NCBI GenBank assembly: GCA_965216465.1
Contig: CBDCFW010000006.1
Span: forward strand, 853,244-917,243
Direction of reading: 5' to 3'
DNA: 64,000 bases
From: Bacteroidia bacterium
Lineage (GTDB): Bacteria > Bacteroidota > Bacteroidia > NS11-12g > UBA9320
This document shows positions 10,044 through 59,866 of the stretch, piece by piece. The position numbers were made by a program, and so were the translations under genes. How positions within the stretch are numbered: the first letter of the stretch is position 1; every line of letters begins with the position of its first letter. Below the pieces are notes generated by a model that worked only from the letters and a program-made list of their open reading frames with translations, was not told the origin of the DNA and made no database searches.

Positions 10044-10520
10044 TTAAGAAATAAGTTTTTGCCTGAGCATGAATTCAAGCTGTTGGTTGGTTTCAACCAG
10101 TCTTGATTTCATAAGGTGGTCTTGTTTCTTTTCTTGGTTTGCGTAAAAGGATGCTTCAATAGTTTGTGTTAAATCGTCTTTAACCCAAGGCTTGGTTAAA
10201 AATCTAAACACTTCACATCGATTTATAGCCTCAATCACAATATTAATGTCGTTACATCCTGTAATTAAGATCCTTCCAATATGTGGATGCTCAGTCTTTA
10301 ATCGCTCTAAAAGATCGACTCCAGAAATGTCTGGCATCATGTGGTCGGTAATTACAACATCAATCTCATTAGCCTCAATAATTTCAAGGGCTTTAGCAGC
10401 ACCATCGGCTAAGTGTACATTGAAAATTTTACGAAAATTTGCTCTGAAAGCTGTAAGATTTTGTGCTTCATCGTCAACGTAAAGCACGGAAATGATTTTG
10501 TTTAAATCCATGGTTATCAA
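10044..10520 (-). CDS. Stand-alone response-regulator receiver (REC-only, CheY-like)
   Basis: LYVDDE...DVVITDHMMPDISG...LTKP contains the phospho-acceptor Asp and Lys. There is no output domain. Confidence 0.8.
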   Translation of the reverse strand: MITMDLNKIISVLYVDDEAQNLTAFRANFRKIFNVHLADGAAKALEIIEANEIDVVITDHMMPDISGVDLLERLKTEHPHIGRILITGCNDINIVIEAINRCEVFRFLTKPWVKDDLTQTIEASFYANQEKKQDHLMKSRLVETNQQLEFMLRQKLIS

Positions 10521-10603
10521 TAAATAGTAGTACTACAAATATACATTAAATGTTGATAACTGCAAAACTTGGATGTATTTATATAGATGTTTGTATGATT
10601 ACA

Positions 10604-15672: not shown

Positions 15673-16702
15673 TAATTCCTCGAATCCAAATAGGAAATAC
15701 AATAATTCCCAAGAATAAATACGGGAAGTAACTAATTAATCGCCACAAAACGGAGGTACTGTTTGCCAACTGTGGGTTGCTGAAGTATTCCCCCAAAAAT
15801 GCAGGAAAAAGCAACTCCGCGAGACCACTTGCACCTGGAGTTACAGGCAACATTAAGGCTCCCCACATGATTAATTGACGAGCAAATATCTCAAGCACTT
15901 CTGTTCCGTGACCAAATGCTAAAATCAAGAAGTTTACTAAGGCAAAGCGAGCAGTCCAAGAAAATAGGGTCGCTCCAAATGCTTTAAACCAAAAAGGTCT
16001 TCTTTTTAGTCTAAATTCTTCTGACGCTACCAATAACTCATCACCCCAAACCTTAGCATTTTCTTTCCATCTTCTTAGTAATGGAAGTCTAAAAATCCCT
16101 TTTAGAATACCACTTACAACTTGGGGACGTATGAAAATCCCGACATAAACAACAACAGCCCAAACGATGAGAATAACGTAAGATGCGATGAAGTATCCTT
16201 TCATCAACGAGCCACTGAAAACCCCAATCTGACCCGGAATTTGACTATTAAGTCCAGTAAAAATTAGAAGAAGTGGAACAGCTAGAACATAGAACAATAC
16301 GTCTAAATAAGATGTAGCGAGAACAATAGCTGTAGATTTTCCTGTTCCAAGTTTTTTCTCTTGTGCCAGTAAGATAAAGGCTGCAGCGGTGCCTCCAACT
16401 ATTCCCGGTGAAATTGCCGAAGAGAATTCCCAGAGCACAACAAGGTGAAAGCACTTTCTCCAACTCAATTTTTCATCACTTAAAATCCGAAGGCGGTATA
16501 CGTATCCCAAGAAACGGAATCCGACCATGATTAAAGCAAGGATAAACCAAAAAAGTACATTAACTCCCCAGTCTATGTCTTTGTAGGCATTTGGATCAAA
16601 ATCTCGATAGAAAAAATAGAACACAACAGCGACCCCTATAACGATAGGAATTATGAGGTTACGTCCCTCAAAATATTTTCGCAGTTGTCGTACTGAACTC
16701 AA
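15635..16702 (-). CDS. UPF0104 / lysylphosphatidylglycerol-synthase-TM-like (flippase-like) integral membrane protein
   Basis: Eight or more TM helices and a GTGKSTAIVLATSYLD segment. It overlaps the IDH stop by 4 nt. Confidence 0.7.
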   Translation of the reverse strand: MSSVRQLRKYFEGRNLIIPIVIGVAVVFYFFYRDFDPNAYKDIDWGVNVLFWFILALIMVGFRFLGYVYRLRILSDEKLSWRKCFHLVVLWEFSSAISPGIVGGTAAAFILLAQEKKLGTGKSTAIVLATSYLDVLFYVLAVPLLLIFTGLNSQIPGQIGVFSGSLMKGYFIASYVILIVWAVVVYVGIFIRPQVVSGILKGIFRLPLLRRWKENAKVWGDELLVASEEFRLKRRPFWFKAFGATLFSWTARFALVNFLILAFGHGTEVLEIFARQLIMWGALMLPVTPGASGLAELLFPAFLGEYFSNPQLANSTSVLWRLISYFPYLFLGIIVFPIWIRGIIKEARSRHQLQE

Positions 16703-32514: not shown

Positions 32515-33596
32515 AGAAAATGAAGCATACGTACGTACTGATTCTAGCGGGTGGAATTGGAAGCCGGTTTTGGCCTATTAGCCGAGAAAAAAAACCAAAA
32601 CAATTTCTCGATATTCTGGGTACAGGACGAACACTAATTCAAGAAGCATTTACCCGATATAGCAAGCTGGCTGACAAGGAAAATATTTATGTAATTACTA
32701 ATGAACGCTATGTTTCACTAGTGGCGGAGCAACTTCCAGAACTTGCAAAAGATCAAATACTGGGAGAGCCTTATGGGAAAAATACAGCGGCTTGCGTAGC
32801 CTACGCAGCTCATAAAATATCTGAACTATCCGATGAAGGAATTTTAATTGTTGCACCAAGTGACCATTTAATATTGGATGAAACCACCTTCATCAATCAA
32901 ATGCACAGGGCTCAAAACTTTGCAAAAGAGAATGATGCCCTAATTACCTTAGGTATTAAACCGCATCGCCCTGACACTGGCTACGGTTACATTCAGTTTA
33001 AAGAGAAGGAGATTAAAGATGGGGTTAATAAGGTAGTTACCTTTACAGAAAAACCACCTTTAGACCTCGCAAAGAAGTTTTTGGAAAGCGGTGACTTCCT
33101 GTGGAACTCAGGAATGTTTATTTGGAGCATTTCAAGTATTATGAAAGCCTTAAATGAGCACTTGCCCGAAATGAGCTTGGTTTTTGCAGAAGGCAAAGGA
33201 GCATACAACACTTCAATAGAAGCCCAACACGTAGAGCGAATCTACAGCCAAATAAATAGCATCTCAATAGATAATGGGGTTCTTGAAAAGGCAGAAAACG
33301 TGTATGTACTCCCATCTGACTTTGGTTGGAGTGATTTAGGAACTTGGAAAAGCGTTAATGAACAAATAGAACCCAAAGAAAATAACTCATCACTAAATGC
33401 AATCTTGCATGCAACCAATGCTAAGGATAATTTGGTGGTAACTCAGCAAGAGAAATTAGTTGTACTTAAAGATTTAGATGGCTACTTTGTAATTGACACA
33501 GACGATGCTTTACTTATTTGTAAATCTGATCAAGAGCAAGAAATAAAGAAAATAGCGTCTGAGATTAAGAAAAAGTACAACAAACGCTTTGGTTAA
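32511..33596 (+). CDS. Mannose-1-phosphate guanylyltransferase (GDP-mannose pyrophosphorylase)
   Basis: VLILAGGIGSRFWPISREKKPKQF nucleotidyltransferase N-terminus. It overlaps the kpsF stop by 4 nt. Confidence 0.8.
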   Translation: MKKMKHTYVLILAGGIGSRFWPISREKKPKQFLDILGTGRTLIQEAFTRYSKLADKENIYVITNERYVSLVAEQLPELAKDQILGEPYGKNTAACVAYAAHKISELSDEGILIVAPSDHLILDETTFINQMHRAQNFAKENDALITLGIKPHRPDTGYGYIQFKEKEIKDGVNKVVTFTEKPPLDLAKKFLESGDFLWNSGMFIWSISSIMKALNEHLPEMSLVFAEGKGAYNTSIEAQHVERIYSQINSISIDNGVLEKAENVYVLPSDFGWSDLGTWKSVNEQIEPKENNSSLNAILHATNAKDNLVVTQQEKLVVLKDLDGYFVIDTDDALLICKSDQEQEIKKIASEIKKKYNKRFG

Positions 33597-34752
33597 AAAA
33601 TCGAGATTAGCATACTTATGGGTTTTTCTTCTTGCACTCTTTTCGTTTAAAGAGTCAAATCTGAATATTGATTCTGATCAGAATCAATTGATCAACCATG
33701 AAATCTTGAACTCTTTTTACAATCAACTTGATTCGTTAGTTGAACACGCTGATCGTAAAGTTTCTATAGTTCATATTGGAGATTCGCACATTCAAGCAGA
33801 TTATCTAACAGGTACAGCAAGAAAGAACTTCCAACAGCATTTTGGAAATGGGGGCCGTGGATTTGTGTTTCCATATCGAATTGCTCGTAGTGGAGGAGCC
33901 ATAGATGTTAAATTTAGCCATACGGGATCTTGGGAATACTGTGAGGTCATGCGGAAGTATGCCTATTGCGATTTAGGAGTCTCTGGTTATGCTGTTTCTC
34001 CAATTGATAATTGCTCTGTGCACATAGATGTAATTTCTAAGGCAGTTTCGAATGCTTCATTCAATAAGATAACGGTTTTGGATAATGAAGACATTTATGT
34101 TCCAACAGCTGCAAATGGATCATATCAGATCGATACAACTGGTGAAAGTACAGTGATTGTATTCGATAAATTTCAAGATACTATAGACTTGGCTCCTTTA
34201 CAATCGAACCAGCACGCACAACTAGAAGGGTTAATATTGGAGAATGGGCAACCAGGAGTGCTTTATCACGCTATGGGTGTTAATGGATCGAGCACATTGC
34301 AATATTTACGGAGCAAAACATTTGAGCATGACATAGCTGAGTTAAATGCCAATCTGGTTATTATCTCATTCGGAACGAATGATTGCTACCTGCCGAGATC
34401 TCGATTTTGTCAACATTGCATCAAAGACCGGTACAAGACCATGATTTCTCGAATCAGGTCTCAGAATCCCAATGTTGCAATTTTAATCACTACTCCCCCT
34501 GATCATTATTACTACCGACGATATCCGAATAAGAATATTAAACTTTTAAGAGATGCCTTAGTAGAAATGGCAAATGAAGAAAATGTTGCGGTTTGGGACC
34601 TTTATGGGGTAATGGGAGGAGAGAACTCAATTCGCAGTTGGTACAACGAAAGTTTGGCAAGAAGAGACCTCATTCATTTCACCAAAGAGGGATATTACAA
34701 GCAAGGGGATTTATTGTTTGAAGCTATAATGCACCATTATCAAGAACGCTAA
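33589..34752 (+). CDS. SGNH/GDSL-family hydrolase, probable O-acyltransferase partner of the downstream MBOAT
   Basis: Signal peptide. VHIGDSHIQAD is block I and FGTNDC is block III. The stop overlaps the MBOAT start. Confidence 0.65.
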   Translation: MVKKSRLAYLWVFLLALFSFKESNLNIDSDQNQLINHEILNSFYNQLDSLVEHADRKVSIVHIGDSHIQADYLTGTARKNFQQHFGNGGRGFVFPYRIARSGGAIDVKFSHTGSWEYCEVMRKYAYCDLGVSGYAVSPIDNCSVHIDVISKAVSNASFNKITVLDNEDIYVPTAANGSYQIDTTGESTVIVFDKFQDTIDLAPLQSNQHAQLEGLILENGQPGVLYHAMGVNGSSTLQYLRSKTFEHDIAELNANLVIISFGTNDCYLPRSRFCQHCIKDRYKTMISRIRSQNPNVAILITTPPDHYYYRRYPNKNIKLLRDALVEMANEENVAVWDLYGVMGGENSIRSWYNESLARRDLIHFTKEGYYKQGDLLFEAIMHHYQER

Positions 34753-36260
34753 TGTTGAGTTTAGATCAAATATTCAACTATTCTGAAAAGCACCCGTTGC
34801 TGTTCAACCAATACCTCTTCCTTTTGCTATTTACAGTAATGTTCGCAGGCTATACTCTGGTTCATAAAAGGGTAAGGCTACGTAACTTCTATTTGCTCAT
34901 TTTTAGCTTATTCTTTTACTATAAAAGCAGCGGCTTATACTTCTTCCTGTTGCTGTTCAGTACTGTTGTTGATTATGGATGTGGATATGGCATATTCTTA
35001 TCAAAAAATCAGCTTGGTAAGCGGTTATATTTATTGCTCAGTGTGTTTGTAAACCTAGGAATGCTTGCCTTCTTTAAGTATTCTTACTTTTTCGTGGATA
35101 TTATAAACTCCTCGTTCGATACAAGCTTTAAAGCCGTAAATTTCTTGGCGGTTTTTGCTAATGAATCACTCGGTGCTAGCTTCAATATAAATGAGATATT
35201 TTTACCCGTTGGTATATCGTTCTACACGTTTCAAACCCTAAGCTACAGCATTGATATTTATCGCGAGAAGATTAAACCGTGTGGCAACATATTTGACTTT
35301 GCCTTCTTCGTTTCTTTCTTTCCGCAACTTGTGGCAGGGCCAATTGTAAGAGCTTCCGAATTTTTACCCCAAATCAAAAGGCCCTATTACTTAAGTAAGA
35401 GTGGTTTTGGAATCGCTGTCTTTCTCATAATGACAGGTTTAATCAAGAAGGTTGTAATTAGTGATTACATCAGTGTAAATTTTGTTGATCGTGTATTTGA
35501 TACTCCAGATTTATATAGTGGATTCATGAATCTGATGGCGGTGTATGGATACTCTATACAAATCTATTGTGACTTTTCAGGCTATTCTGATATGGCCATC
35601 GGACTGGCTGCATTACTAGGCTTTAAATTGCCCATAAACTTTAACAGTCCGTACAAAGCCAGAAACATTACAGACTTTTGGAGAAGATGGCACATTTCAC
35701 TGTCTACATGGCTGCGAGATTATCTTTACATTTCGTTAGGAGGAAATCGAAAAGGAAAGATTAGAACATATTTTAACTTGTTCATTACCATGTTGCTGGG
35801 AGGACTTTGGCACGGGGCTGCCCTGAAGTTTATTATATGGGGCGGATTGCACGGTGTAGCATTGGCCATTCACAAACTTTGGATGCGTTTCTCAAACTTT
35901 TCGTTGGGTCGACCTGGCAGGGTTCTGAGCGTGATTTTTACATTCCATTTTGTGGCTTTTTGTTGGCTTTATTTTAGAGCCTCAGATGTTCCTACCGTTA
36001 AAGCTATGTTGAACAACATATTTTTTGATTTTGATTGGTTCGGGGTAACAGAGCGCGTAGTGGCCTACTGGAAAGTATTTGCTTTAATTGTACTAGGATT
36101 TGTTCTTCACCTCTTGCCTAACAATTTGAAAAACAGAGTTCAATGGTGGTTTACAGAGTCGCCAATGTATGTTAAGGTAATGGTGTTTGTTATTGTTGTG
36201 TTTGCAACATTTCAAGCAACTGTTGCTGGCATACAACCATTTATTTACTTCCAGTTTTAA
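34752..36260 (+). CDS. MBOAT-family membrane-bound O-acyltransferase (AlgI/DltB/PatA-like)
   Basis: Multi-TM protein with FWRRWHISLSTWLRDYLYISLGG, which contains the conserved MBOAT His. Confidence 0.85.
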   Translation: MLSLDQIFNYSEKHPLLFNQYLFLLLFTVMFAGYTLVHKRVRLRNFYLLIFSLFFYYKSSGLYFFLLLFSTVVDYGCGYGIFLSKNQLGKRLYLLLSVFVNLGMLAFFKYSYFFVDIINSSFDTSFKAVNFLAVFANESLGASFNINEIFLPVGISFYTFQTLSYSIDIYREKIKPCGNIFDFAFFVSFFPQLVAGPIVRASEFLPQIKRPYYLSKSGFGIAVFLIMTGLIKKVVISDYISVNFVDRVFDTPDLYSGFMNLMAVYGYSIQIYCDFSGYSDMAIGLAALLGFKLPINFNSPYKARNITDFWRRWHISLSTWLRDYLYISLGGNRKGKIRTYFNLFITMLLGGLWHGAALKFIIWGGLHGVALAIHKLWMRFSNFSLGRPGRVLSVIFTFHFVAFCWLYFRASDVPTVKAMLNNIFFDFDWFGVTERVVAYWKVFALIVLGFVLHLLPNNLKNRVQWWFTESPMYVKVMVFVIVVFATFQATVAGIQPFIYFQF

Positions 36261-37220: not shown

Positions 37221-38066
37221 GTGAACAAAAACTTAGTGTCAAATTTTTCAACAGAACTAAATGATCCGAGGTATTTCCAGATATTTTACCTCGGGTCGTT
37301 TTTATGCTATGGAATTCTCTTTCTTGATTGGAGTCTAGCCATAACTAACTATGCTACTATTTTTTTGGCCGCTACAGCTACGCAGCTCTTTTTCGCTCAT
37401 TTCACCACGAAAAAATATTCGTCTATTAAAAGTGGATTGATAACCGCATTGGGTCTATGCCTTTTACTAAAAATGCAAAGCCCTTGGGTCGGAGGATTAG
37501 CCGCGGTTATTGCCATAGCAAGCAAGTTTCTAATTAGAAAGAAAAACAAACATATTTTCAATCCAGCTAACATTGGCATTGTTGCTGCTATTGTGCTTAC
37601 AGGACAAGCCTGGGTTAGCCCAGGGCAATGGGGTAGCAATGTTGTATTGTGGTTTTTTATTGGTTCGGCTGGATTGATGATGATCTTAAAAGTTGGGAGA
37701 TTGGATACTGCTATTTCGTTTCTCCTAACTTTTGGGACATTACTCTTCTTACGTCAAGTAGTTTATTTGGGATGGGAACCTTCTGTTTGGCTTCATAAAA
37801 TGAGCAACGGAACATTGCTTTTGTTCGCATTTTTTATGATTACAGACCCCATGACAACACCAAATCACCCTAAAGCTCGAATCATTTGGGCAAGTATAAT
37901 CGGTATTGCACTTTTCATTGTCTCGAACTTTTTGTATATGCAAAGTGCTGCAATCTGGATTCTCTTCATTATTAGTCCTTTTACAGTCTTATTCGACCGA
38001 ATTTTTAAAGGGGTGAAATATGAATGGACTCAAAATCAATCGAAGCAAAGTTTACCCTCAAATTAA
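37221..38066 (+). CDS. NqrB/RnfD-family-like polytopic membrane protein (short form, no flavinylation motif)
   Basis: HIFNPANIGIVAAIVL and FFMITDPMTTP resemble the NqrB segments RNFLNPALAGRAF and FFMATDPVSAS. No S/TGAT FMN-attachment motif is present. Confidence 0.4.
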   Translation: MNKNLVSNFSTELNDPRYFQIFYLGSFLCYGILFLDWSLAITNYATIFLAATATQLFFAHFTTKKYSSIKSGLITALGLCLLLKMQSPWVGGLAAVIAIASKFLIRKKNKHIFNPANIGIVAAIVLTGQAWVSPGQWGSNVVLWFFIGSAGLMMILKVGRLDTAISFLLTFGTLLFLRQVVYLGWEPSVWLHKMSNGTLLLFAFFMITDPMTTPNHPKARIIWASIIGIALFIVSNFLYMQSAAIWILFIISPFTVLFDRIFKGVKYEWTQNQSKQSLPSN

Positions 38067-38077
38067 AAAATAGTATT

Positions 38078-39544
38078 ATGAAAAAAACAACTTTAATCGT
38101 CTTTGCAATTCTGGCTACACTTGGAGCCAATGCATTTTGTGGCTTCTATGTCGCTAAGGCAGGATCAAACCTGTACAACAACAAATCTGAAGTTATTCTG
38201 GTCCGCGATGGAGACCGCACAACAATTACAATGAGTAACGATTTTCAAGGCAATGTGAAAGATTTTGCCATGGTCGTTCCTGTACCTAATGTTATATCAA
38301 GAAGAGATATTAAGGTGGCAGATAGAGGAATCTTTGAATTTTTAGATGCCTATTCAGCTCCAAGATTGGTAGAATACTTTGATCATAACCCCTGTGCAGT
38401 TCCACCACCTCCAGTCTTAGAAATTGTCGAAGATGACTTGGAAGTGGATGAAGTCGATGTATCATATTTTACGAAACGTGATGTTCGAACAGGAGTTAAA
38501 ATTGAAGCCAAATACGATGTAGAAGAGTACGAGATCTTGATTTTAAGTGCGACAAAGTCTGAGGGTTTAGAAGAATGGCTAATTACCAACGGCTATAAAA
38601 TACCTACAAAAGCAAAGAAGGTATTAGAGCCTTATATCAAGAATAAACTTAAATTTTTTGTGGTTAAGGTAAATTTGAATAAGTATAATCCTCAAGCACA
38701 TGGAGGGTACCTAAGGCCTTTGCAAGTAAGTGTGACCTCAAATAAATTTATGCTTCCAATTCGATTAGGGATGGCCAATTCGAAAGGAGCTCAAGACATG
38801 ATCGTTTATACCTTTTCAAAAAAGGGAAGAGTTGAGTGCACCAACTACAGAACAGTAGACGTGCCATCAAATCGAAACGTTCCAACTTTTGTTAAGGCTA
38901 AATTTGGGAACTTCTATAAAGACTTGTTCGAAACCTCATATCGTCGTCAAGGTAAAGATGCAGTTTTCTTGGAGTATGCTTGGAATGTTACTCCACGTTT
39001 TACCGGAATGAAATGCGATCCATGTGTTGGAAATCCTCCTTACGTAAATGAGTTGTCTAAAGCGGGAGTTCATTGGTCTGGAAGTGGCCAGAATGTTTTT
39101 TTTACAAGAATGCATGTACGGTACGCTCTCGACAAATTTCCTGAAGACTTGTTCTTTCAAGAAACACCAAACAACCAAAACTTTCAAGCGAGATATATTA
39201 TTACACATCCGGCTGGGGGAGACTTAACCTGTGATGAAGGCCAGCAATATTTGGCCAAATTAAAAACCCGCAGGAAAAAGGAATTGTCTGAAATGTCGGC
39301 ATTAACACAATGGGATGCATTGAAGTATCCGGATTATGTATCTACTGGATCTGCCCAAGAGCGGGTGGAAGTGAAGGAGGTGGATGAAATAGAGACCGAC
39401 CCAATTAAAAATGATGTTTTTCCAATAGGCAATATGAACAACGACAAACCAAAGGGCCCGATGCTTTTTTTAGTCCTTTTTGTCACCATGTTTATAGCCT
39501 ATATGGTCAACAATTTAGCGTTGCAGCGTCGCTTGCAACGATAA
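38078..39544 (+). CDS. Secreted conserved hypothetical protein with a C-terminal TM anchor (possibly DUF2330-like)
   Basis: Signal peptide MKKTTLIVFAILATLGANAFC, then a large extracytoplasmic domain and a C-terminal hydrophobic helix GPMLFLVLFVTMFIAYMV. It overlaps the upstream gene's 3' end. Confidence 0.4.
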   Translation: MKKTTLIVFAILATLGANAFCGFYVAKAGSNLYNNKSEVILVRDGDRTTITMSNDFQGNVKDFAMVVPVPNVISRRDIKVADRGIFEFLDAYSAPRLVEYFDHNPCAVPPPPVLEIVEDDLEVDEVDVSYFTKRDVRTGVKIEAKYDVEEYEILILSATKSEGLEEWLITNGYKIPTKAKKVLEPYIKNKLKFFVVKVNLNKYNPQAHGGYLRPLQVSVTSNKFMLPIRLGMANSKGAQDMIVYTFSKKGRVECTNYRTVDVPSNRNVPTFVKAKFGNFYKDLFETSYRRQGKDAVFLEYAWNVTPRFTGMKCDPCVGNPPYVNELSKAGVHWSGSGQNVFFTRMHVRYALDKFPEDLFFQETPNNQNFQARYIITHPAGGDLTCDEGQQYLAKLKTRRKKELSEMSALTQWDALKYPDYVSTGSAQERVEVKEVDEIETDPIKNDVFPIGNMNNDKPKGPMLFLVLFVTMFIAYMVNNLALQRRLQR

Positions 39545-39607: not shown

Positions 39608-40099
39608 TTGAAGAACCAACTACCAACTTATCTTAAAGTTTTTTGTGTACTTAGCATTATTGGATTTAGCTACTTAACTGCTATGAATTATGTGATGTAT
39701 TCAACGCCTGAACAGATATCCACAATGCGACAAGATATACTTGTTCAACTTGAACATAGTATAGAAGACATGGAGAACGACTCTAATACCGAAGAATTGG
39801 ATGGCTTTTTTGATAAGGTTACTGAAGATGTAGAAACCCATTTAACCGAATCAAGATACAAACAACATAGCCTATACAGGATGTTGGGAAACTTCTTGAC
39901 ACTCATAGGAGCAATGTTCATGTTCAGAGCGAGAAAGCTTGGATTTCATCTTTACATAGGAGGCTCCATTCTATCAATCGTATTTGGTTTTGTAGCATTT
40001 GGATTCGGTATGATAGGTTGGGCGTTTAACATCCTCTACATTTTCGCGGCTCTCCTATTCGGCTTTATATATTTCAAATCCTTAAAGTACTTAAATTAA
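39608..40099 (+). CDS. Hypothetical polytopic membrane protein
   Basis: One N-terminal TM helix, an acidic soluble segment and C-terminal TM helices. Its stop TAA is immediately followed by the GTG start of the radical SAM gene. Confidence 0.5.
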   Translation: MKNQLPTYLKVFCVLSIIGFSYLTAMNYVMYSTPEQISTMRQDILVQLEHSIEDMENDSNTEELDGFFDKVTEDVETHLTESRYKQHSLYRMLGNFLTLIGAMFMFRARKLGFHLYIGGSILSIVFGFVAFGFGMIGWAFNILYIFAALLFGFIYFKSLKYLN

Positions 40100-41125
40100 G
40101 TGTTTAGCAAGGCTCAAGTAATAGATGGAATTCAGTACGCAAAATCGTTGAATATCAACAGGTTGTTCAATGCGGCTAAGATTTATTTAAGCTACTTTGC
40201 GAGTAAGGCAACGAAGAAAAACTATCACTCCGGCAATCCAATTGCGATCTCAATAGAACCAACAACTTCATGTAATCTTCGATGTCCTGAATGTCCATCA
40301 GGATTGCGATCTTTTTCAAGACCTATTGGAATGTTAGATCCCGAATTGAACAAGACTATAATTGACCAATTAAAAGGGGAGTTAACCTATATCACGTACT
40401 ACTTTCAAGGAGAGCCATACCTCAACACTAATTTTACGGATATGGTTCGGTATGCAAGCGACCACAAAATTTATACAGCCACCTCTACAAATGCACACTA
40501 CCTAACCGACGACAATTGTAAGAAAACGATTGAAAGTGGATTGAGCCGTATGATTATTTCAATCGACGGAGTAACACAAGATAGCTATGGGAAATATAGA
40601 ATTGGAGGAGACCTCAAAAAGGTGATAGAAGGAACCAAAAATATGGTTCGGTGGAAGAAGGAAATGAAGAGTAAGACTCCGTTTATTTTGTGGCAGTTTA
40701 TTGTATTTGGTCATAACGAGCACGAAATAGATGAGATTCGATCGCTAGCTAAGGAAGTTGGTGTCGACCACTTAGCATTAAAAACAGCCCAGATTTATGA
40801 CTTTGAAACAGGAAGTGATTTACTTCCAAAAAACCCCAAATATTCGAGGTATAAAAAGAAGAATGGCAGGTACCAAATTCAGCACAAATTACTGAACCAT
40901 TGCTGGAGAATGTGGCATGCCTGTGTCGCTACCTGGGACGGCAAACTTGTTCCCTGCTGTTTTGATAAAGACGCCGAGTATCAGCTCGGAAGTCTAAACA
41001 ATTTGACGTTCAAGCAAATATGGAAATCGGAAGAATACAATCGATTTAGAAGACTCATCTTGAAATCGAGAAGCAATATTGACATCTGCAAGAACTGTAC
41101 TGAGGGCACTAGTGTCTGGAAGTAA
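40100..41125 (+). CDS. Radical SAM enzyme with a C-terminal SPASM/twitch-like Cys-rich domain
   Basis: SIEPTTSCNLRCPECPS has the CxxxCxxC motif. The C-terminus CWRMWHAC...PCCFDKD...DICKNC is an auxiliary-cluster Cys pattern. Confidence 0.8.
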   Translation: MFSKAQVIDGIQYAKSLNINRLFNAAKIYLSYFASKATKKNYHSGNPIAISIEPTTSCNLRCPECPSGLRSFSRPIGMLDPELNKTIIDQLKGELTYITYYFQGEPYLNTNFTDMVRYASDHKIYTATSTNAHYLTDDNCKKTIESGLSRMIISIDGVTQDSYGKYRIGGDLKKVIEGTKNMVRWKKEMKSKTPFILWQFIVFGHNEHEIDEIRSLAKEVGVDHLALKTAQIYDFETGSDLLPKNPKYSRYKKKNGRYQIQHKLLNHCWRMWHACVATWDGKLVPCCFDKDAEYQLGSLNNLTFKQIWKSEEYNRFRRLILKSRSNIDICKNCTEGTSVWK

Positions 41126-41201
41126 AAAAGTGAAAATTATTTTTGTGATTACCCAAATTGCATTAATATTGCTTGAATCAAAAATAAAGGCTTTTGATAT
41201 T

Positions 41202-42704
41202 ATGAATAGACACTTACTAACTTTATTAGTTGCACTAATACTTTTTACCCCCACCTTAGAAGCACAGAATAACGGAAACAAATTTGGCTTTGAAATCAAT
41301 GGTGGCTTGCGCGAATATCACGGTGATTTGGGTAGTGCACTATATCTACAAAGAAGACCTGATTATCAATTTGTAGGAGGAGCATTTGGAATGTCTCTTA
41401 ATCCTTCATTTGATGTAAACATCTACGGTTCTTCTGGTGATTTAGGGTTTTATAAGAATACATACGACGTTCGTACTACAAGATCATACCGACAAGGTTT
41501 TAGATCTAGAATTACCAACGTAATGCTAGGGGTTACATACAAGTTTAATAATGGTTACATTATGGACGAAGACGCGACCTTTAAGCCGTATTTAAGAGGA
41601 GGTTGGGGTGTAAGCCAATCGATTACCCGTTTGTCACACAATAAAACAGGATACTCAGAAAGTAGAAACTGGTTAGCATCACACTGGAATGCAGGTGTTG
41701 GTGTTAAAATCAGATTAACTCCTTCTATCGATCTTGCTTTAAGCGAAATGTTTAACTACAGTTTCGATGATAACTACGACGGTGAGCCATTCACGCTGAC
41801 AGGTGCGAAACTGAACGATGCAATGGAGGGCAATAAGCCACTTCACGATGCATTCTTAGCTCACTCTATTGGATTTGTATTTAACTTCGGTGGCGGAGGA
41901 AGCGGATACACGATCAAAGACTCTGACGAAGATGGTGTTGCTGATGCGTTTGATATCTGTCCTAATACTCCAGACGGATATGAAGTTGATAGCGTTGGTT
42001 GTGCATTAGACGATGATAAAGATGGTGTACCTAACGAAATTGATAAGTGCCCAACTGTTCCTGGTGAGAAAGACAGAGACGGTTGCCCAATTTTAGATAA
42101 GGATAGAGATGGTATCGAAGATGCTGATGATAAGTGCCCAGAAACTCCAGGTTTAAAAGAGTTCGATGGCTGCCCAGATTCAGATAAAGACGGTATTATC
42201 GATTCTGAAGATAAATGTCCACTACTTGCCGGTACAGCAGAAGGCGAAGGTTGTCCTGATTCTGACGGCGATGGTGTTTATGACCATAAAGATGTTTGTC
42301 CTACAACTCCAGGGGTTGTTGAGAACAAAGGTTGTCCAGAAATTAAAGAGGAAGTTAAGGAAGCTATTAGACTGGCTGCAAAAGGAATTTACTTCGAAAG
42401 TGGTAAAGACGTAATAAAAGCAGAGTCATTCGCTAACCTTGACAAACTAGTAGAGATACTAAACGAATATCCAGAAGCAAAGGTTGCTATTGATGGTCAC
42501 ACTGATAGCCAAGGTGAAGATGCCGACAATTTGCAGCTTTCGCAGGATAGAGCAAGTGCGGTTAAAAGATATTTAGCGTCTAAAGGCGTTGAAGAAACTA
42601 GAATGACTGCCACAGGATATGGAGAGACTCAGCCAGTTGCTGATAATGGTTCAGCCGCTGGGCGAGCACTAAATAGAAGAGTAGACTTTAAACTCTCTTA
42701 TTAA
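41202..42704 (+). CDS. OmpA-family protein with thrombospondin type-3 (Ca-binding DxDxDG) repeats
   Basis: Signal peptide and N-terminal beta-barrel-like region. DSDEDGVADAFD, DDDKDGVPNEID, DKDRDGIEDADD and DSDKDGIIDSED are type-3 repeats. The C-terminal OmpA_C domain is ...DGHTDSQGEDADNLQLSQDRASAV... Confidence 0.85.
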   Translation: MNRHLLTLLVALILFTPTLEAQNNGNKFGFEINGGLREYHGDLGSALYLQRRPDYQFVGGAFGMSLNPSFDVNIYGSSGDLGFYKNTYDVRTTRSYRQGFRSRITNVMLGVTYKFNNGYIMDEDATFKPYLRGGWGVSQSITRLSHNKTGYSESRNWLASHWNAGVGVKIRLTPSIDLALSEMFNYSFDDNYDGEPFTLTGAKLNDAMEGNKPLHDAFLAHSIGFVFNFGGGGSGYTIKDSDEDGVADAFDICPNTPDGYEVDSVGCALDDDKDGVPNEIDKCPTVPGEKDRDGCPILDKDRDGIEDADDKCPETPGLKEFDGCPDSDKDGIIDSEDKCPLLAGTAEGEGCPDSDGDGVYDHKDVCPTTPGVVENKGCPEIKEEVKEAIRLAAKGIYFESGKDVIKAESFANLDKLVEILNEYPEAKVAIDGHTDSQGEDADNLQLSQDRASAVKRYLASKGVEETRMTATGYGETQPVADNGSAAGRALNRRVDFKLSY

Positions 42705-49694: not shown

Positions 49695-49744
49695 CATTCT
49701 TTGTCATTTTTTCGAAGTAAAGTTTTGTTTTTGAAATAAATGTA

Positions 49745-49752
49745 TAAATTTG
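49745..49752 (+). promoter_or_regulatory. Candidate TAnnTTTG -7 promoter element for the giant T9SS cargo gene
   Basis: TAAATTTG lies 45 nt upstream of the ATG at 49797. Confidence 0.3.
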
Positions 49753-49796
49753 ATGCTTTACAATTTAAAAATAAACGTAATTTATCAATCAAGCGT

Positions 49797-52700
49797 ATGA
49801 AAAAAATTTACAATTCGAATTGGCTTTTCAAATTAACAATGATGGCCGCAGCTTGCTTGCTTTTTGCAGGTACAGCAACGGCTCAGCTTAGTGGTAGTTA
49901 TACCATCGACGCAGGTGGTACCGGTGATTTCTTGTCTTTCACCGAACTTGAAGACACCCTAAAAAGTGACGGGGTTTCTGGAGCAGTTACAGTTGATGTA
50001 CTTGCAGGATCAGGACCTTACACTGAAGATTTCAAATTAACTGAAATTACTGGGGCTTCTTCATCTAACACAATTACTATCAACGGTAATGATGAAAAGA
50101 TCACTTTTAACGGTCAAACGTTAGGCTTTAACGGAACTGACTACATTACTTTCAATGACCTTATCATTGAGTCAACATCTACTAGTGCAGCAAGAATTAT
50201 TCGTGCTCATTCTGGTATTAACAACATGACTTTCGATGGATGTGAGGTTATTGCTAACGGTGCTAACTCTTATGGAGGATGGCCAGCTTACTACCAAAGT
50301 GCTTACTTCTGGTTCGGTAACTCTAACTACTATTACAACGATGCTAGTGACGAAGTTTATGACATCACTATCAACGATTGTAAATTATGGAAAGGGAGTT
50401 CCTCAGTAAATAACCAAGGTAAAACTTATGGTATCTACTTTGCAACTGCTTACACTTCTGAAGTTAACTTGACAATTACTAACAATGACATTCAGGACAT
50501 TGGTCAGTTTGCAATGTACTTGAGAAAAGTAAACGGTGGTCTTGTTGAAAACAACCACATTCACAACGAAAACAATAGTGCAAATACTTACATTTACGCT
50601 ATCTATGTTTACAACTACTTCCTTTCAGGATCTGAAGTTGTAACTATTTCTCACAACAACATTCACGACATTTTCACTTCTAACAGAAGCTATGCTTACG
50701 CAAGTGTTTATGGAATTTATGCATATGGATACTATGCGGGTACTAACTGGGAAATTCACAATAACGTAATTGCGTTATGGGGTCCTTACTACCAATATGG
50801 TATTTACAACTACGGTTATAACAGTTCTGGAGACATGAACGTATCTTATAACACGATTAGAATGGATGGTAATGTATCTTATGCATATACTAGACATTAT
50901 GGTATGTATTTCTACTACATCTCAGGTGGAGACGTTGTAAACAATATTATTGTTGATGAAACTGCTAACTGGGGTGCTGGTAATGGTGGATCTTGGTTGA
51001 TTTACATTTACCAAAGTGGACAAACATTTGATCACAACAGTTTAGATAATGAAAGCATGATGGGATCAGCTGTTCCAGGTAATGTATACTATGCATACAA
51101 CGGAGGTAACAGAAAAGAATTTACTGATTGGACAAACGACCAAGGTGGTTCTAACTCTGTAAATCACAATCCAAACTTTACTGACGTAGCTGGTGCGGAC
51201 TTTACTCCTCAGAGTATTGCAATGGCTAACGCTGGTACTCCTACTACAATTACTGAAGATTTAACGTATTCAACTAGAAGTGGAACTACTCCAGATGTTG
51301 GAGCTATTGAGTACTTCGTTGATATCGAAGTTGTAAGTGTTGATATGACTGGTGGTAACGAGTGTGCTCCATATACTGAAGATGTAGTTGTTACTCTTCA
51401 AAATAATGGACCAAACGATATCTCTGGTGTTCCAATGCAATACACTATTAATGGTGGAGCTCCAGTAATGGAAATTGTTACTACTTCAATTACTGCGGGT
51501 GGTACAATGCAGTTTACTTTTGCTCAACCTGCTAACCTTTACGGTTCTCAAACTCACGACATTGATGTTTCTGTTGTAGGTGCTGATGATGTTCCTGCTA
51601 ACAGTGATGGATCTCATACAATTACGACAACTGCTTCTCCATGGGGTGGTGACCTTGCACAAGGTGCTACTTGGAATGGATACTTCAATAATGGTTCAAT
51701 GGGCGATCCTGATGTAACTGTTAAAGATCACGTAATTGAGTACGACATTACTCGTCCAGATGCTTATATGGGTTCTGCTCCTGGTACTTCAACTAGTGGA
51801 GATTACTACTACACTATTCAAGCAACTACTATGAGTGGTGTTGATGTAACTGGTTTTGGATTTAGCTTAACTAACAACGATGAGACTTTAACTGTTGATC
51901 CAGATCAAGCTCTTGCAGATTCTACGATCTTCATGAACATCATTGTTATGGATAACAACACGGGTTGTGATACTTCTTTCGGAAGATACTTATATGTACC
52001 ACATACTCCAGAAGTTGACTTTACTGAAATGGACATCTGCCTAGGCGATGTTGCTCAGTTCAAAAACACTTCTACTTTAGATGGTGACGATTATATGTTG
52101 AACACTTGGGATTTTGATGATCCAGATCCTGCTGTAACTGATGATAACTCTGATATCCTTGACGGATTCTGGAGCTACACTACTTACGGTTCTGCTGATG
52201 TAACTTTAACAGTAGTAAACGGACAGTACCCATTATTTGAGTACTCTATAACTAAATCAATTACTGTTACTCCTAAGCCAGAAGTTGATTACAAAGTATT
52301 GAACGCTTGTGAAGGTTCAGACATTGTTTTCGATAACAACACTGCATTACCTGCAGGTATTACAGGTACAATTACTTACGATTGGGACTTCAACGGTGAA
52401 GGTTCTTCTACTGATGAAGATCCAACATTCATGTTCTCAACTCCAGGTCAAAGAGTTGTAACTCTTACTGCATCTGCAAACGGATGTGACGCTACATTAA
52501 GTAAAAATGCATACCAATTCGAAAACCCAGTTGCTGACTGGAGCTCAGTTGGAGAGTGTAACTTCGTTGATGTTGAATTCGTTAACGAAACTGCAATTCC
52601 AAATGACGCTAACTACGGTTTAGCTTGGGACTTCGGTGACGGAGGAATCTCTAGATTAGAGAACCCATCTCACGCTTTCGCTACTCCAGGTACTAAGACT

Positions 52701-53774
52701 GTTACTTTAACAGCTACTTCTGAGTTTGGTTGTGTGAGCATGCATACTTCAACTGTTGAACTTAAAGAGTCTCCTGAGGCAGACTTCGATTGGGATGCAG
52801 CTTGTAACCTTACTCCAATTAACTTTACAAGAACTGGTTCTGTACCTAACGGTGGAACTGGAAGCTCTTACGCTTGGGATTTCAACGGTGAGTCAGTGTC
52901 TGGAATGGAAAATCCATCACACTTATTCTCTAATGTAGGTCCTAAAACTGTAAGCTTAACTATCTCTGACCTTAACGGATGTTCAAGCAGCATTACTAAA
53001 GAAGTAAACGTTGTATTACAAGCAGTTGCTGATTTCGAAGTTGCTGACGTTTGTGAAGGTGACGAGGCTGTATTTACTAACAAATCATCTGTTGCTGCTG
53101 GTGACCTTGAGTACATGTGGAGCTTCGGAGAAAACAACGCTACTTCTGAAGACCTTTCTCCAAGACACGCATACGATGTTACTGGTAACACTAGACTTGT
53201 TAGTGTAACTCTACAAGCTATCGTTCCTGGTGGATGTTCTGATGAGATTACTTTACCTCTTACTGTAAACGCTGCTCCAGATGCATCATTTACTGCTGAG
53301 ACTCAAGGTAGAACTGTAATCTTTGATGGTCCTTCTGGAAACAGCATTTACCAATGGAGATTCGGTAACGGAGCTTCTGCAACTAGCGAAGATGTTAACT
53401 ATACTTACACTAACGTAGACGAAGGTACTTTCGAAGTTTGCTTAGCAACTAAGAATGCAGAGTGCTGGAGTGAAGAGTGTAACCTAGTTACTATCAACCT
53501 TGCTGGTATCGAAGATCTTACTGAGAACAATGATATGATTAGCGTATACCCTAACCCAACTACTGGATCATTCAACTTAGAAGTTGAAAATGCATCTGAT
53601 GACATGGTTGTTAAGGTTGCTGACATATTAGGAAACGAATTGAACGTTGAAGTAATCAACAACCTTAACGGTAAGTTCATCGTAAACATGTCTGCTGTAG
53701 CTGACGGAGTTTACTTTGTACAAGTTAAGAACGGTGATTTCTATGCAACGAAAAGAATTACAGTTTCTAAATAA
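49797..53774 (+). CDS. Giant secreted protein: right-handed parallel beta-helix repeats + about 6 PKD-like domains + T9SS C-terminal sorting domain
   Basis: Signal peptide MKKIYNSNWLFKLTMMAAACLLFAGTATAQ. Tyr/Asn/Gly-rich beta-helix repeats (NNHIHNENNSANTYIYAIYVYNY). Repeated xVDFT...C.GD.V.F.N.S PKD modules. The C-terminus ISVYPNPTTGSFNLEV...GVYFVQVKNG... is a Por_Secre_tail. Confidence 0.8.
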   Translation: MKKIYNSNWLFKLTMMAAACLLFAGTATAQLSGSYTIDAGGTGDFLSFTELEDTLKSDGVSGAVTVDVLAGSGPYTEDFKLTEITGASSSNTITINGNDEKITFNGQTLGFNGTDYITFNDLIIESTSTSAARIIRAHSGINNMTFDGCEVIANGANSYGGWPAYYQSAYFWFGNSNYYYNDASDEVYDITINDCKLWKGSSSVNNQGKTYGIYFATAYTSEVNLTITNNDIQDIGQFAMYLRKVNGGLVENNHIHNENNSANTYIYAIYVYNYFLSGSEVVTISHNNIHDIFTSNRSYAYASVYGIYAYGYYAGTNWEIHNNVIALWGPYYQYGIYNYGYNSSGDMNVSYNTIRMDGNVSYAYTRHYGMYFYYISGGDVVNNIIVDETANWGAGNGGSWLIYIYQSGQTFDHNSLDNESMMGSAVPGNVYYAYNGGNRKEFTDWTNDQGGSNSVNHNPNFTDVAGADFTPQSIAMANAGTPTTITEDLTYSTRSGTTPDVGAIEYFVDIEVVSVDMTGGNECAPYTEDVVVTLQNNGPNDISGVPMQYTINGGAPVMEIVTTSITAGGTMQFTFAQPANLYGSQTHDIDVSVVGADDVPANSDGSHTITTTASPWGGDLAQGATWNGYFNNGSMGDPDVTVKDHVIEYDITRPDAYMGSAPGTSTSGDYYYTIQATTMSGVDVTGFGFSLTNNDETLTVDPDQALADSTIFMNIIVMDNNTGCDTSFGRYLYVPHTPEVDFTEMDICLGDVAQFKNTSTLDGDDYMLNTWDFDDPDPAVTDDNSDILDGFWSYTTYGSADVTLTVVNGQYPLFEYSITKSITVTPKPEVDYKVLNACEGSDIVFDNNTALPAGITGTITYDWDFNGEGSSTDEDPTFMFSTPGQRVVTLTASANGCDATLSKNAYQFENPVADWSSVGECNFVDVEFVNETAIPNDANYGLAWDFGDGGISRLENPSHAFATPGTKTVTLTATSEFGCVSMHTSTVELKESPEADFDWDAACNLTPINFTRTGSVPNGGTGSSYAWDFNGESVSGMENPSHLFSNVGPKTVSLTISDLNGCSSSITKEVNVVLQAVADFEVADVCEGDEAVFTNKSSVAAGDLEYMWSFGENNATSEDLSPRHAYDVTGNTRLVSVTLQAIVPGGCSDEITLPLTVNAAPDASFTAETQGRTVIFDGPSGNSIYQWRFGNGASATSEDVNYTYTNVDEGTFEVCLATKNAECWSEECNLVTINLAGIEDLTENNDMISVYPNPTTGSFNLEVENASDDMVVKVADILGNELNVEVINNLNGKFIVNMSAVADGVYFVQVKNGDFYATKRITVSK

Positions 53775-57433: not shown

Positions 57434-57928
57434 TTAGCCTTTTCTAATCTTTTCAATAATAGAAGTACTGCTGTGACCTTCTAAGAATGGAATCACTTCC
57501 ACCTTACCACCATCTTTAATGACCTCTGTAGCTCCTACAATGGTTTCAAATGTATAGTCGCCACCTTTTACCAAGATATCTGGCTTAACTGTTGTAATCA
57601 GCTCTAATGGGGTTTCTTCTCCAAAATAAACCACAGCATCCACAAAAGCCATTGCTGCCAATTTAGTTGCTCGAGTTTGTTCTTGAATTACGGGTCTATT
57701 TTCTCCTTTCAGTTTTGAAACCGATTGATCGGTGTTGATTCCAATCACTAATCGGTCACCGAGATCCGCTGCCTTACTTAGGTAATCTATATGACCAAGG
57801 TGTAATAAGTCGAAACATCCATTGGTAAATACAATTCGATCATTGAACGATTTCCATACTTCAACTTGCTCAGCCAATTCGGTGTAGCTTGTATAGATTT
57901 TTTCTTCAATGAGTTGTTTCCACTCCAT
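57434..57928 (-). CDS. D-glycero-beta-D-manno-heptose 1-phosphate adenylyltransferase (RfaE domain II, cytidylyltransferase-like)
   Basis: IVFTNGCFDLLHLGHIDYL carries the HxGH motif. The size (164 aa) is right for the stand-alone RfaE-II domain. Confidence 0.75.
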   Translation of the reverse strand: MEWKQLIEEKIYTSYTELAEQVEVWKSFNDRIVFTNGCFDLLHLGHIDYLSKAADLGDRLVIGINTDQSVSKLKGENRPVIQEQTRATKLAAMAFVDAVVYFGEETPLELITTVKPDILVKGGDYTFETIVGATEVIKDGGKVEVIPFLEGHSSTSIIEKIRKG

Positions 57929-58988
57929 TCTTCTTAATTTTTTGCGATTGAACGATGAACGATATTACAGAGAATATTCCTACTCCAATGATAACAATAA
58001 ATTGCACGGCATGCGTAATTAATGTATAAGAGCCTGCTATTAATGAATCAATTCCATAAAGTGCTAAAGCTGCTGGAACCAATATTTCAAAGGTACCAAC
58101 ACCGCCAGGAACAGGAACAATCATCGCAGCAGTTCCAAAAAGTAAAACGGTTAATCCAGCAGAAACGCCTAAATGTGCAGTTCCTTCCAGTGCAAATAGA
58201 GTAAAGTAAGGCATGCAGAAGTACATGGCCCATATAAAAAGACTATAAAAAATAAATAATCCCTTTTTCTCTAGTGCAAAAATGGTTTTGAAACCATCTA
58301 ATATCCCCTCGATAAAGTCTTTAAACTTATTAATAATAGGCAAGGTGTAAATCCACTTTCTCTTTTTGTATAGAATGCCAATAATGAGCAATCCAAATAA
58401 ACCTACTACAGCATAAATGATGAGCGAATTTGCGTTTATAGGGGAAAACAAGTCAGTTGCAAATTCATAGATGGTGTCAAACAAAAGAAAGAAGATCCCA
58501 ATCGCAATCAACACCGTAATTATTAAATCAATAACTCTCTCAACAACCACAGTTCCTACCAGTTTGTTGAAAGGAATATTCTCCAACTTCGAAAGTACCG
58601 CAGGCCGTGTAATTTCACCAACTCTTGGAAGTGCAAAATTGACCAGGTATCCAAGTATTACAGCATGAAAACTGTTTGTTGGCCTGGCATTATACCCCAT
58701 GGGTGTAAGCAACAGGTTCCATCGCAAAGCTCTAGCTAAATGGCTAAGCACGCCACAAAACATGGAAAGAGCAATCCACTTGTAATCGGCATTTCTGATT
58801 TCATGAACAAGGTCACCCAAGTCTTCCTTTCCCAAGGCCCAATAAAATAGTCCAACACCTAAGGTGAGGAATACAACTGTGTTGATGATGGTTTTAGTTT
58901 TCTTATTCAAGAATAGCTTTGTTTTGATGATCAGGGAATACGAGATGTGGAGTATAAGATTTGGCTTCGTTAAACTCCATGAGTGCAA
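57906..58988 (-). CDS. UPF0104 / flippase-like (LPG-synthase-TM-like) membrane protein, paralog of 15635..16702. The start is uncertain.
   Basis: Polytopic and glycine-rich, with VPGGVGTFE near the C-terminus. The ORF's 5' 85 nt overlap panD, so the true start is probably internal or non-ATG. Confidence 0.65.
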
Positions 58989-59356: not shown

Positions 59357-59866
59357 GTGCGTCAATTGATTATGCAACGAATATTTAAATCCACACCCGA
59401 GATCACAAGCGGTTCGATGGCAGACATTGCTTTCTTGCTGCTCATTTTTTTCCTGGTCACCACAACCATTGATGTTGATTACGGAATCTCTACTAACATT
59501 TCAAAACCCTTTGATGTGCCCGACAGCCTGAGTTTGGAGGTATCAACACTTGTTCTTAACCAACAAGGGGCAATGCTCTTAGACGATAAGGATGTTAAAT
59601 TCAATGACTTAAGCCAAAAAATTGCTGAAGACTTTAACAATCAGGCCTCAGTAAAAAACGTATTGCTTGTAAAGTCAGAGCGAAATGTCGACTACGAATT
59701 ATTTATCAGCGCCCTGAATGAAAGCAAAAAAGGGTTTAAGGTTTTCTACGACCGAATGGCACGAGAAAAATATAATTCAACATACGTTGAACTTTCAGAC
59801 AGTAACAAAGTTCAGCTTAAGTTGCTTCATCCGGTATCATTGGCTGAAGATGTTATTGAGCTTTAA
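59357..59866 (+). CDS. exbD: ExbD/TolR-family biopolymer transport protein
   Basis: [17 protein letters not shown] is a single N-terminal TM helix typical of ExbD. The remainder is periplasmic. Confidence 0.65.

Follow-up and report, generated by a model that had tools for sequence, protein, structure and literature searches.

A short RnfD/NqrB-like membrane protein lacking the covalent FMN site is encoded next to an exported DUF2330 protein in Bacteroidota

We analyzed a stretch of 64,000 nucleotides, hereafter the window, from a Bacteroidia bacterium (GTDB lineage Bacteroidota; Bacteroidia; NS11-12g; UBA9320; assembly GCA_965216465.1, contig CBDCFW010000006.1, positions 853,244 to 917,243 of the forward strand). 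Our analysis focused on two adjacent genes, which encode a short membrane protein related to RnfD and NqrB and an exported protein of the family DUF2330. The membrane protein truly belongs to the NqrB/RnfD superfamily, albeit in a truncated form, and the two genes were found side by side at virtually all the informative loci that we sampled in Bacteroidota. The reading that we tentatively prefer is that the pair might constitute a small two-subunit extracytoplasmic electron-transfer module of the cell envelope, a system that we did not find described in the searchable literature.

The relationship of the membrane protein to RnfD and NqrB was supported by several lines of evidence. The protein matched the family PF03116 (NQR2_RnfD_RnfE) with 54.3 bits, relative to a gathering score of 27.7, and this was its sole Pfam match. 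The RnfD of Azotobacter vinelandii was recovered from the PDB with the single sequence (E 3e-6) and with a profile built from 52 sequences of the family (E 2.3e-16 against 8ahx_D). In sequence, the protein is nearer to RnfD than to NqrB, and its score against the NCBIfam model rnfD (35 bits, with a cut-off of 207) is far under the threshold for true RnfD. The profile alignment was composed of two pieces, with residues 28–124 of our protein matching residues 33–132 of RnfD and residues 134–268 matching residues 211–343. The intervening residues 133–210 of RnfD form a periplasmic loop of ~78 aa that bears the threonine carrying flavin mononucleotide (FMN); these residues had no counterpart in our protein, where ~9 residues stand instead. 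The motif [ST]GAT was found in none of 120 family members. These results bear out the initial annotation of this DNA, which had been made from the sequence alone and had read the gene as a shortened NqrB/RnfD-like protein without the flavinylation threonine, proposing a search with this profile as the check. The two sequence blocks on which that reading was based are real as well: KHIFNPAN aligns with GQNPFNPA of RnfD and FFMITDP aligns with FFIATDP of RnfD.

The structural prediction leads to the same assignment. The AlphaFold2 (AF2) model of the membrane protein (mean predicted local distance difference test, pLDDT, of 87.8) presents about 10 membrane helices, and the chain ends 20 residues past the last helix. 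When this model was searched with Foldseek, the top 15 matches were all RnfD or NqrB proteins, with template modeling (TM) scores of 0.64–0.71 for RnfD (0.71 for 8rbq_D) and ~0.6 for NqrB; urea transporters and Amt/Rh proteins were the next-best matches (TM 0.36–0.43). The positive-inside rule and the architecture of the natural fusions described below place both termini in the cytoplasm and the short loop AWVSPGQWG in the periplasm. Overall, the protein shares with RnfD and NqrB the PF03116 domain, a fold of ~10 helices and the NPA and FFM(A/I)TDP blocks that line the riboflavin pocket. In contrast, it is ~40–130 aa smaller, it is deleted for the periplasmic FMN loop and for the N-terminal quinone region of NqrB, it has no other Rnf or Nqr genes nearby, and the position of N200 in NqrB is occupied by an invariant histidine.

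The two conserved blocks correspond to the site of a second, non-covalent flavin. In NqrB of V. cholerae, a non-covalently bound riboflavin is hydrogen-bonded by N200, N203, A205, F342, D346, and T162 (PMC10643135), and N203A/D346A mutants lose riboflavin (PMC9293633). The mutagenesis primers place N200 and N203 in R-N-F-L-N-P-A and D346 in F-M-A-T-D-P (PMC9293633). In RnfD of C. tetanomorphum, the riboflavin is flanked by the equivalent residues N124 and D248 (PMC9588780). Among the 52 sequences of the short family, which are 50–77% identical overall, the pocket equivalents H111, N114, A116, F205, and D209 were invariant or nearly so, and T75 was nearly invariant. Because the FMN loop is absent whereas these pocket residues are conserved, the alignments indicate that the covalent FMN site, and this site only, is what was lost, and that the pocket of the second flavin is under strong constraint. 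We infer that the retained pocket may still bind riboflavin. The term "flavin-less" used in the initial annotation is therefore not supported: the blocks that it recognized are motifs of the riboflavin pocket with conserved residues, and only the covalent FMN site is gone.

We then considered the association of this protein with DUF2330. At least 573 species-representative genomes presented a match to the RnfD-like protein. Our sample comprised 83 loci, of which 80 were obtained from a scan of species-representative genomes and three from look-ups of exact proteins; 81 of these were informative, the other two ending too soon. They were distributed across Flavobacteriales/Crocinitomicaceae, Chitinophagales/Ferruginibacter, Cytophagales, Sphingobacteriales, and Saprospirales, and all 83 came from Bacteroidota except for one bin labeled Luminiphilus. 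This last locus (L016, contig CAXPZW010000036.1, labeled Luminiphilus sp.) carries a typical Bacteroidota-type pair in a bin with a gammaproteobacterial name, and it is probably a binning error rather than a true occurrence.

A DUF2330 gene adjoined the RnfD-like gene at 80 of the 81 informative loci. It was located at most 200 nt downstream on the same strand at 77 of them, at 542 nt at one locus and directly upstream at two loci; the single exception (L035) had no DUF2330 gene within 6 kb. In the reverse direction, the three DUF2330 proteins that we examined were all directly preceded by a PF03116 gene encoding 280–288 aa. The coupling of a stand-alone RnfD-like protein to this partner, which had been suggested from the window, is thus conserved in other genomes. 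Stop and start codons overlapped at 23 of about 70 scored loci, mostly by 4 nt (ATGA type), and the two genes were fused into a single open reading frame (ORF) of 745–764 aa at loci L063, L067, and L073. Full-length fusions of 710–791 aa were also present in 10 of the best 150 representatives of clusters defined at 50% identity. The fusions retain a hydrophobic signal-like segment and an AxA site ahead of FCGF, and this internal segment implies that the C-terminus of the RnfD-like part is cytoplasmic and that the DUF2330 part is periplasmic. At several loci (L006, L022, L023, L031, L041, and L078), one RnfD-like gene was accompanied by 2–4 tandem DUF2330 genes. Taken together, the pairing, the overlaps, and the fusions represent strong genomic evidence that the two proteins may form a physical two-subunit complex.

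The unit appears to be limited to these two genes. When all ORFs of the 83 loci were clustered, no third conserved gene emerged, and the flanking genes varied by locus. The initial annotation had suggested co-occurrence with ApbE-type flavin transferases; neither an ApbE gene nor any other link to flavinylation was found in the window or at the 83 related loci. Neither protein matched any PADLOC defense model, and an exact-sequence look-up of the public model of the RnfD-like protein (P0001) returned no record.

The partner protein is an unambiguous member of DUF2330 (PF10092, COG4402, IPR019283), with an E-value of 7.9e-70 and 235.7 bits (cut-off of 24.7) over profile positions 3–278 of 279. 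It presented no other Pfam match at E-values up to 1, and a sequence search against the PDB revealed no relative. No paper on this family was found in the searchable literature, in agreement with the earlier statement that no function is assigned to the pair. The protein contains one N-terminal and one C-terminal hydrophobic segment, as expected from its initial description as a secreted protein with a signal peptide and a C-terminal anchor. In all 58 aligned sequences, an AxA site of the signal-peptidase-I type directly precedes the invariant FCGFYVA. We considered that DUF2330 might be a lipoprotein and rejected this possibility, since the phenylalanine at position -1 misfits a lipobox and the AxA site fits all sequences. 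An Fe-S or haem c cofactor is also unlikely, as the signal is of the Sec type and there is no CxxCH motif. Five cysteines (C21, C106, C313, C316, and C385) and H346 are invariant in Bacteroidota and in a distant subfamily from Myxococcota, which shares the FCGFYVA motif as well. A conserved proline is located ~15–25 residues upstream of the C-terminal helix.

The AF2 model of the DUF2330 protein (pLDDT of 83.8) predicts a disordered loop after C106 (residues 107–139). At locus L041, which carries three tandem paralogues, the core of the protein is 93–96% identical between copies and the loop only 22–39%. The divergence of the loop at codon positions 1 and 2 (0.44–0.52) is similar to the third-position (synonymous-site) divergence of the core (0.44), which suggests that the loop is free to drift neutrally. 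Positive selection on this loop was therefore not demonstrated.

The best structural match to the predicted core of DUF2330, which we regard as tentative, was the baculovirus caspase inhibitor P35 (PDB 1I4E/1P35). No profile similarity was detected between the DUF2330 alignment and P35 of Autographa californica multiple nucleopolyhedrovirus (AcMNPV; PF02331), with an hhalign probability of 0.1%. P35 is reportedly a suicide substrate: the caspase is said to cleave its reactive-site loop, and the N-terminal Cys2 to help trap the thioester. In both proteins, the (mature) N-terminus has a cysteine ahead of a core strand, and a long loop of roughly 30–40 residues projects from the core. The location of Cys21 at mature position 2 and the loop 107–139 are suggestive parallels with P35, which we treat as a lead only. 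DUF2330 exceeds P35 by ~130 residues and is an exported protein anchored in the membrane; whereas P35 has a structured reactive-site loop, that of DUF2330 is variable and predicted to be disordered, and any link to proteases would come from the analogy. The P35 superfamily (SCOP b.28.1) has been listed as a virus-specific fold (PMC5671483), and DUF2330 would represent a cellular counterpart of this fold should an experimental structure bear out the P35-like core. The viral contigs of IMG/VR yielded no DUF2330.

DUF2330 extends well beyond Bacteroidota. When its profile was searched against 1.84 billion cluster representatives (50% identity), 5,942 clusters matched at E<=1e-3, 2,938 at E<=1e-10 and 1,010 at E<=1e-30. 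A subfamily with high GC content (guanine and cytosine) was identified in Myxococcota (Polyangium, Kofleriaceae), and its members present the same mature start, with FCGFYV directly after the alanine of the cleavage site. Their tail corresponds to MYXO-CTERM (Gly-Cys, a transmembrane helix and an Arg-rich end). Compared to such sorted proteins (TIGR03901), the DUF2330 protein of the window possesses the helix and the basic tail but lacks the cysteine motif, and it had no NCBIfam match. We compiled 84 loci of the Myxococcota type from look-ups of exact proteins and a metagenome scan, and none of the 84 carried an RnfD-like gene. The DUF2330 genes of Myxococcota often occur in arrays of 2–5 copies (1–5 when single genes are included). 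An ORF with at least four CxxCH motifs was present at 19 of the 84 loci, and a multihaem ORF was located at most 400 nt from the array in 14 loci according to our script, or in about 17 according to the listed coordinates; only 57 of the 84 loci offered 2.3 kb or more of space on one flank of the array. The protein is an uncharacterized pentahaem protein of 720–780 aa, encoded on the same strand at the 3' end of the array and often overlapping the last DUF2330 gene. It matches Cytochrome_C554 (28–39 bits, cut-off of 20.8) and contains five CxxCH motifs, an MtrC/MtrF-like domain and TPR repeats. The Myxococcota array and its pentahaem protein look like a conserved unit in their own right. With an RnfD-like partner in Bacteroidota and a cytochrome in Myxococcota, DUF2330 is linked to two unrelated families that bind redox cofactors.

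Two further observations were made on these relatives. Genes for HtrA/DegP-type proteases (Trypsin+PDZ) adjoin two of the Myxococcota arrays (L089:4392-5870 and L090:3381-4553), and they could bear on the idea of a P35-like protease trap considered below. Searches of plasmids identified just two remnants on Deinococcus megaplasmids, without an RnfD-like neighbor: L084 (plasmid NZ_CP097154.1 of Deinococcus sp. QL22) and L085 (plasmid of D. taeanensis) carry fragmented or frameshifted DUF2330 genes that are 42–46% identical to the Bacteroidota protein. These copies look like decaying genes that were acquired horizontally.

In the electron-transfer module that we tentatively propose, the two genes would encode two subunits of one inner-membrane complex, and electrons would pass between the membrane or the cytoplasmic side and a cysteine-based redox center in the periplasm. 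The membrane subunit, with its ~10 helices, would have lost the FMN loop, kept the non-covalent riboflavin pocket and would act as a transmembrane wire. The DUF2330 subunit would be exported by the Sec system, probably cleaved after A-N-A, and tethered by its C-terminal helix. It may dock on the membrane subunit at its Trp-rich periplasmic side, at about the place that the FMN loop and NqrC/RnfG occupy in the complete complexes, and Cys21, Cys106, the C313-x-x-C316 pair, and Cys385 could serve as electron acceptor or donor. The riboflavin half of the Rnf/Nqr wire would thus be used alone, as in two-subunit NQR/RNF-like systems or in quinone-linked periplasmic thiol oxidoreductases. A broader generalization is conceivable but doubtful in our view: DUF2330 would be a large, so far unrecognized family of extracytoplasmic cysteine-based redox proteins built on a P35-type fold, with a conduit that differs by phylum. 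This conduit would be a riboflavin-only RnfD in Bacteroidota, representing the smallest working Rnf/Nqr unit and sometimes a single polypeptide, and a pentahaem cytochrome combined with MYXO-CTERM sorting in Myxococcota.

Annotation pipelines name the short genes "RnfD" or "NqrB", which falsely suggests that hundreds of Bacteroidota genomes encode part of an Rnf or NQR complex. If our proposal is correct, half of the Rnf/Nqr electron path, that of riboflavin, can function by itself, and the pair would offer a tractable two-protein, in places one-protein, system to study it. It would also provide a first role for DUF2330, a family of several thousand clusters.

Several observations weigh against an electron-transfer module. 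The position of N200 in NqrB is a histidine in the short family. The same Asn/Asp pair has also been proposed as a Na+ site in RnfD (PMC9588780), so that the pocket could be conserved for another ligand or an ion. The membrane protein contains no NAD-binding domain, no Fe-S motif, and no haem motif, and there is no evident electron donor; the quinone-site residues of NqrB could not be mapped onto it. On the side of DUF2330, a motif of the flavinylation type was found in 0–1 of 120 members, neither a CxxCH motif nor a known redox fold was found, and the cysteines could be purely structural disulfides. Finally, among the Myxococcota loci with enough room, no more than roughly one quarter to one third show the association with cytochromes.

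The closest systems described are the two-subunit NQR/RNF-like complexes (Meheust et al. 2021, eLife, PMC8238504; mSystems 2024, PMC11334425), in which an NqrB/RnfD domain without the flavinylated threonine is closely paired with one extracytosolic subunit. The resemblance lies in the two-gene organization, in a membrane domain that lacks the threonine and apparently keeps the non-covalent flavin site, and in a single membrane-anchored extracytosolic partner. In contrast, the NQR/RNF-like membrane proteins carry a C-terminal cytosolic NAD-binding domain (PF00175) that is missing from the protein of the window, and they are paired with an FMN_bind protein of the NqrC/RnfG type that ApbE flavinylates, whereas here the partner is DUF2330 and there is no FMN_bind or ApbE gene. 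They are also mainly found in Actinobacteria and in the candidate phyla radiation rather than in Bacteroidota. The logic that we propose further resembles that of the DsbB/VKOR-type and DsbD-type systems, in which a polytopic membrane protein links an electron pool to periplasmic cysteine pairs. This likeness is functional and hypothetical: the folds are unrelated, and the membrane subunit considered here lacks conserved cysteines and would rely on a flavin.

Alternative explanations were weighed against the same data. The RnfD-like protein could be a channel or transporter whose retained pocket lets an ion or a small molecule (perhaps a flavin) pass, with DUF2330 as a periplasmic binding or processing protein and without any electron transfer. 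Urea transporters and Amt/Rh proteins are indeed the next-best structural matches after RnfD and NqrB, the Asn/Asp pair has been put forward as a Na+ site and two Na+ ions are present in NqrB (PMC9588780, PMC10643135), and nothing is left of the redox-specific additions of RnfD and NqrB, namely the FMN loop and the N-terminal quinone region. We consider this explanation unlikely: the TM-scores to transporters are low (0.36–0.43), a partner with five invariant cysteines that is fused or present in a 1:1–4 ratio would be unusual for a solute channel, and the association with cytochromes in Myxococcota points to redox chemistry. It is similarly improbable that DUF2330 is a membrane-tethered suicide-substrate trap or binder resembling P35, with the variable loop as bait, the N-terminal cysteine acting covalently as Cys2 of P35, and the RnfD-like protein as a mere dock or signal transducer. 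There is no sequence or profile similarity to P35 (hhalign probability of 0.1%), the divergence of the loop fits a neutral linker, and such a trap would leave the invariant riboflavin pocket and the cytochrome partner unexplained.

The RnfD-like protein might instead be dedicated to maturing, sorting, or anchoring DUF2330, in the manner of exosortase, rhombosortase, or myxosortase, which act on substrates with a C-terminal tag, rather than being its working partner. This would be in line with one RnfD-like gene going with 2–4 DUF2330 genes, with the transmembrane helix and basic tail at the end of DUF2330 preceded by a conserved proline ~15–25 residues upstream, and with the recognized sorting tag, MYXO-CTERM, that the Myxococcota subfamily presents at the same place. 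Yet no catalytic-type Cys/Ser/His triad is evident in the RnfD-like protein, and we know of no protease or transpeptidase activity for RnfD/NqrB proteins. The DUF2330 protein of the window lacks the cysteine motif of MYXO-CTERM, and sorting systems do not usually have the enzyme stably fused to its substrate, as would be the case for 10 cluster representatives; a sorting role thus appears quite improbable. Finally, most aerobic Bacteroidota possess NQR, and databases call the short protein NqrB or RnfD, which would be compatible with an alternative or accessory NqrB-type subunit of a canonical Na+-NQR encoded elsewhere in the genome. We regard this as highly improbable, because the two genes travel together as a unit of their own through unrelated contexts and are sometimes fused, the short protein lacks the N-terminal quinone region as well as the FMN on which electron transfer in NQR depends, and its sequence is closer to RnfD than to NqrB.

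Both genes of the pair were recovered as ORFs at the positions first reported for them (Table 1). For the RnfD-like gene, an alternative start at 37236, five codons downstream, yields a protein of 276 aa that corresponds to the public model P0001. The DUF2330 gene had been described as a 490-aa ORF overlapping the 3' end of its neighbor. The start at MKK (38078), which is shared by all homologues and yields a product identical to the public model P0121 (488 aa), provides a better gene model and leaves a gap of 11 nt after the stop codon of the RnfD-like gene, without any overlap in the window. The overlap arises only with the start of the longest possible ORF (ATG at 38024, 506 aa).

Table 1. 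Features of the RnfD-like/DUF2330 pair in the window, with examples of pentahaem genes at Myxococcota-type loci (coordinates given per locus).
Feature	Coordinates	Strand	Details and basis
Short RnfD/NqrB-like membrane protein gene	37221..38066	+	281-aa ORF; GTG at 37221, stop TAA at 38064-38066
HIFNPAN (H111-N117), first half of the putative riboflavin pocket, equivalent to NqrB N200-F-L-N203-P-A205	37551..37571	+	H111, N114, P115 invariant in 52 sequences; RnfD alignment
AWVSPGQWG (A130-G138), short Trp-rich periplasmic loop replacing the FMN loop of RnfD	37608..37634	+	Profile alignment; W131, G135, Q136, W137, G138 invariant
FFMITDP (F204-P210), second half of the putative pocket, equivalent to NqrB F341-F342-M-A-T-D346-P	37830..37850	+	All seven residues invariant; RnfD alignment
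DUF2330 protein gene	38078..39544	+	488 aa: signal peptide, periplasmic domain, C-terminal membrane anchor
Sec-type signal peptide, residues 1-19, ending A-N-A	38078..38134	+	Hydrophobic segment at residues 5-23; AxA site; no twin-arginine motif
FCGFYVA (residues 20-26), predicted mature N-terminus with Cys21, first core beta strand	38135..38155	+	F20, C21, G22, F23, Y24, A26 invariant; strand 23-27
Loop 107-139, after invariant NPC106, predicted disordered	38396..38494	+	pLDDT <50; highest column entropy; length 31-35 aa (58 sequences)
C313-D-P-C316, invariant CxxC of the periplasmic domain	39014..39025	+	C..C in 120/120 members
C-terminal transmembrane helix, residues 462-480, then basic tail QRRLQR	39461..39517	+	Hydropathy peak; model helix 462-487
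Pentahaem protein genes (examples)	L089:7650-9836; L090:10952-13198; L095/L096:12467 onward; L105:11059-13311; L138:4973-7156; L155:1483-3729		

The remainder of the window presents the features of an ordinary Bacteroidota chromosome, with a flat GC content of ~38% and genes encoding cargo of the type IX secretion system (T9SS) with Por_Secre_tail domains, RecQ, phosphoribosyl pyrophosphate (PRPP) synthetase, and an MBOAT/GDSL pair. When about 50 ORFs of the window were scanned against Pfam, no other Nqr or Rnf subunit was found, as had been noted initially, nor any ApbE or FMN_bind protein. Immediately downstream of the pair (39608-41125), a gene for a 163-aa membrane protein without any family match is followed, with no gap, by a gene for a radical SAM/SPASM enzyme, whose best match was a model resembling the maturase of a tungsten-cofactor oxidoreductase, with a score far under the cut-off. 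We considered these two genes as possible members of the unit and rejected them: the radical SAM gene occupies the same position in a close relative (L001), is located ~3.4 kb upstream of the pair at another locus (L010), and was found at none of the other loci. It is syntenic in L001 and L010 with the next gene of the window (41079-42704), which encodes a member of the OmpA family; the N-terminal part of this protein resembles a DUF6089 beta-barrel, and it carries thrombospondin type-3 (calcium-binding) repeats.

Several other groups of genes can be recognized in the window. The genes of a GDSL-family acylhydrolase and an MBOAT (AlgI-like) membrane O-acyltransferase overlap by 1 base (33589-36260) and are located downstream of genes for a KpsF-like (SIS+CBS) protein and a mannose-1-phosphate guanylyltransferase; this group looks like a polysaccharide O-acetylation cassette. 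The region 10550-15672 encodes, in order, a 765-aa protein that matches solely a ThiF-family (E1-like) domain, an ORF of 236 aa without family match and a 7TMR-DISM sensor histidine kinase, and a lone response-regulator gene (10044-10520) lies upstream of the ThiF-domain gene in divergent orientation. Two paralogues with the transmembrane domain of lysyl-phosphatidylglycerol synthase (PF03706) are both encoded on the minus strand (15635-16702 and 57906-58988). Finally, the three T9SS cargo proteins with C-terminal Por_Secre_tail domains (3644-4318, 49740-53774, and 59863-62304), one of which is a 1344-aa protein with PKD repeats and one of which contains DUF7619, fit a Bacteroidota host.

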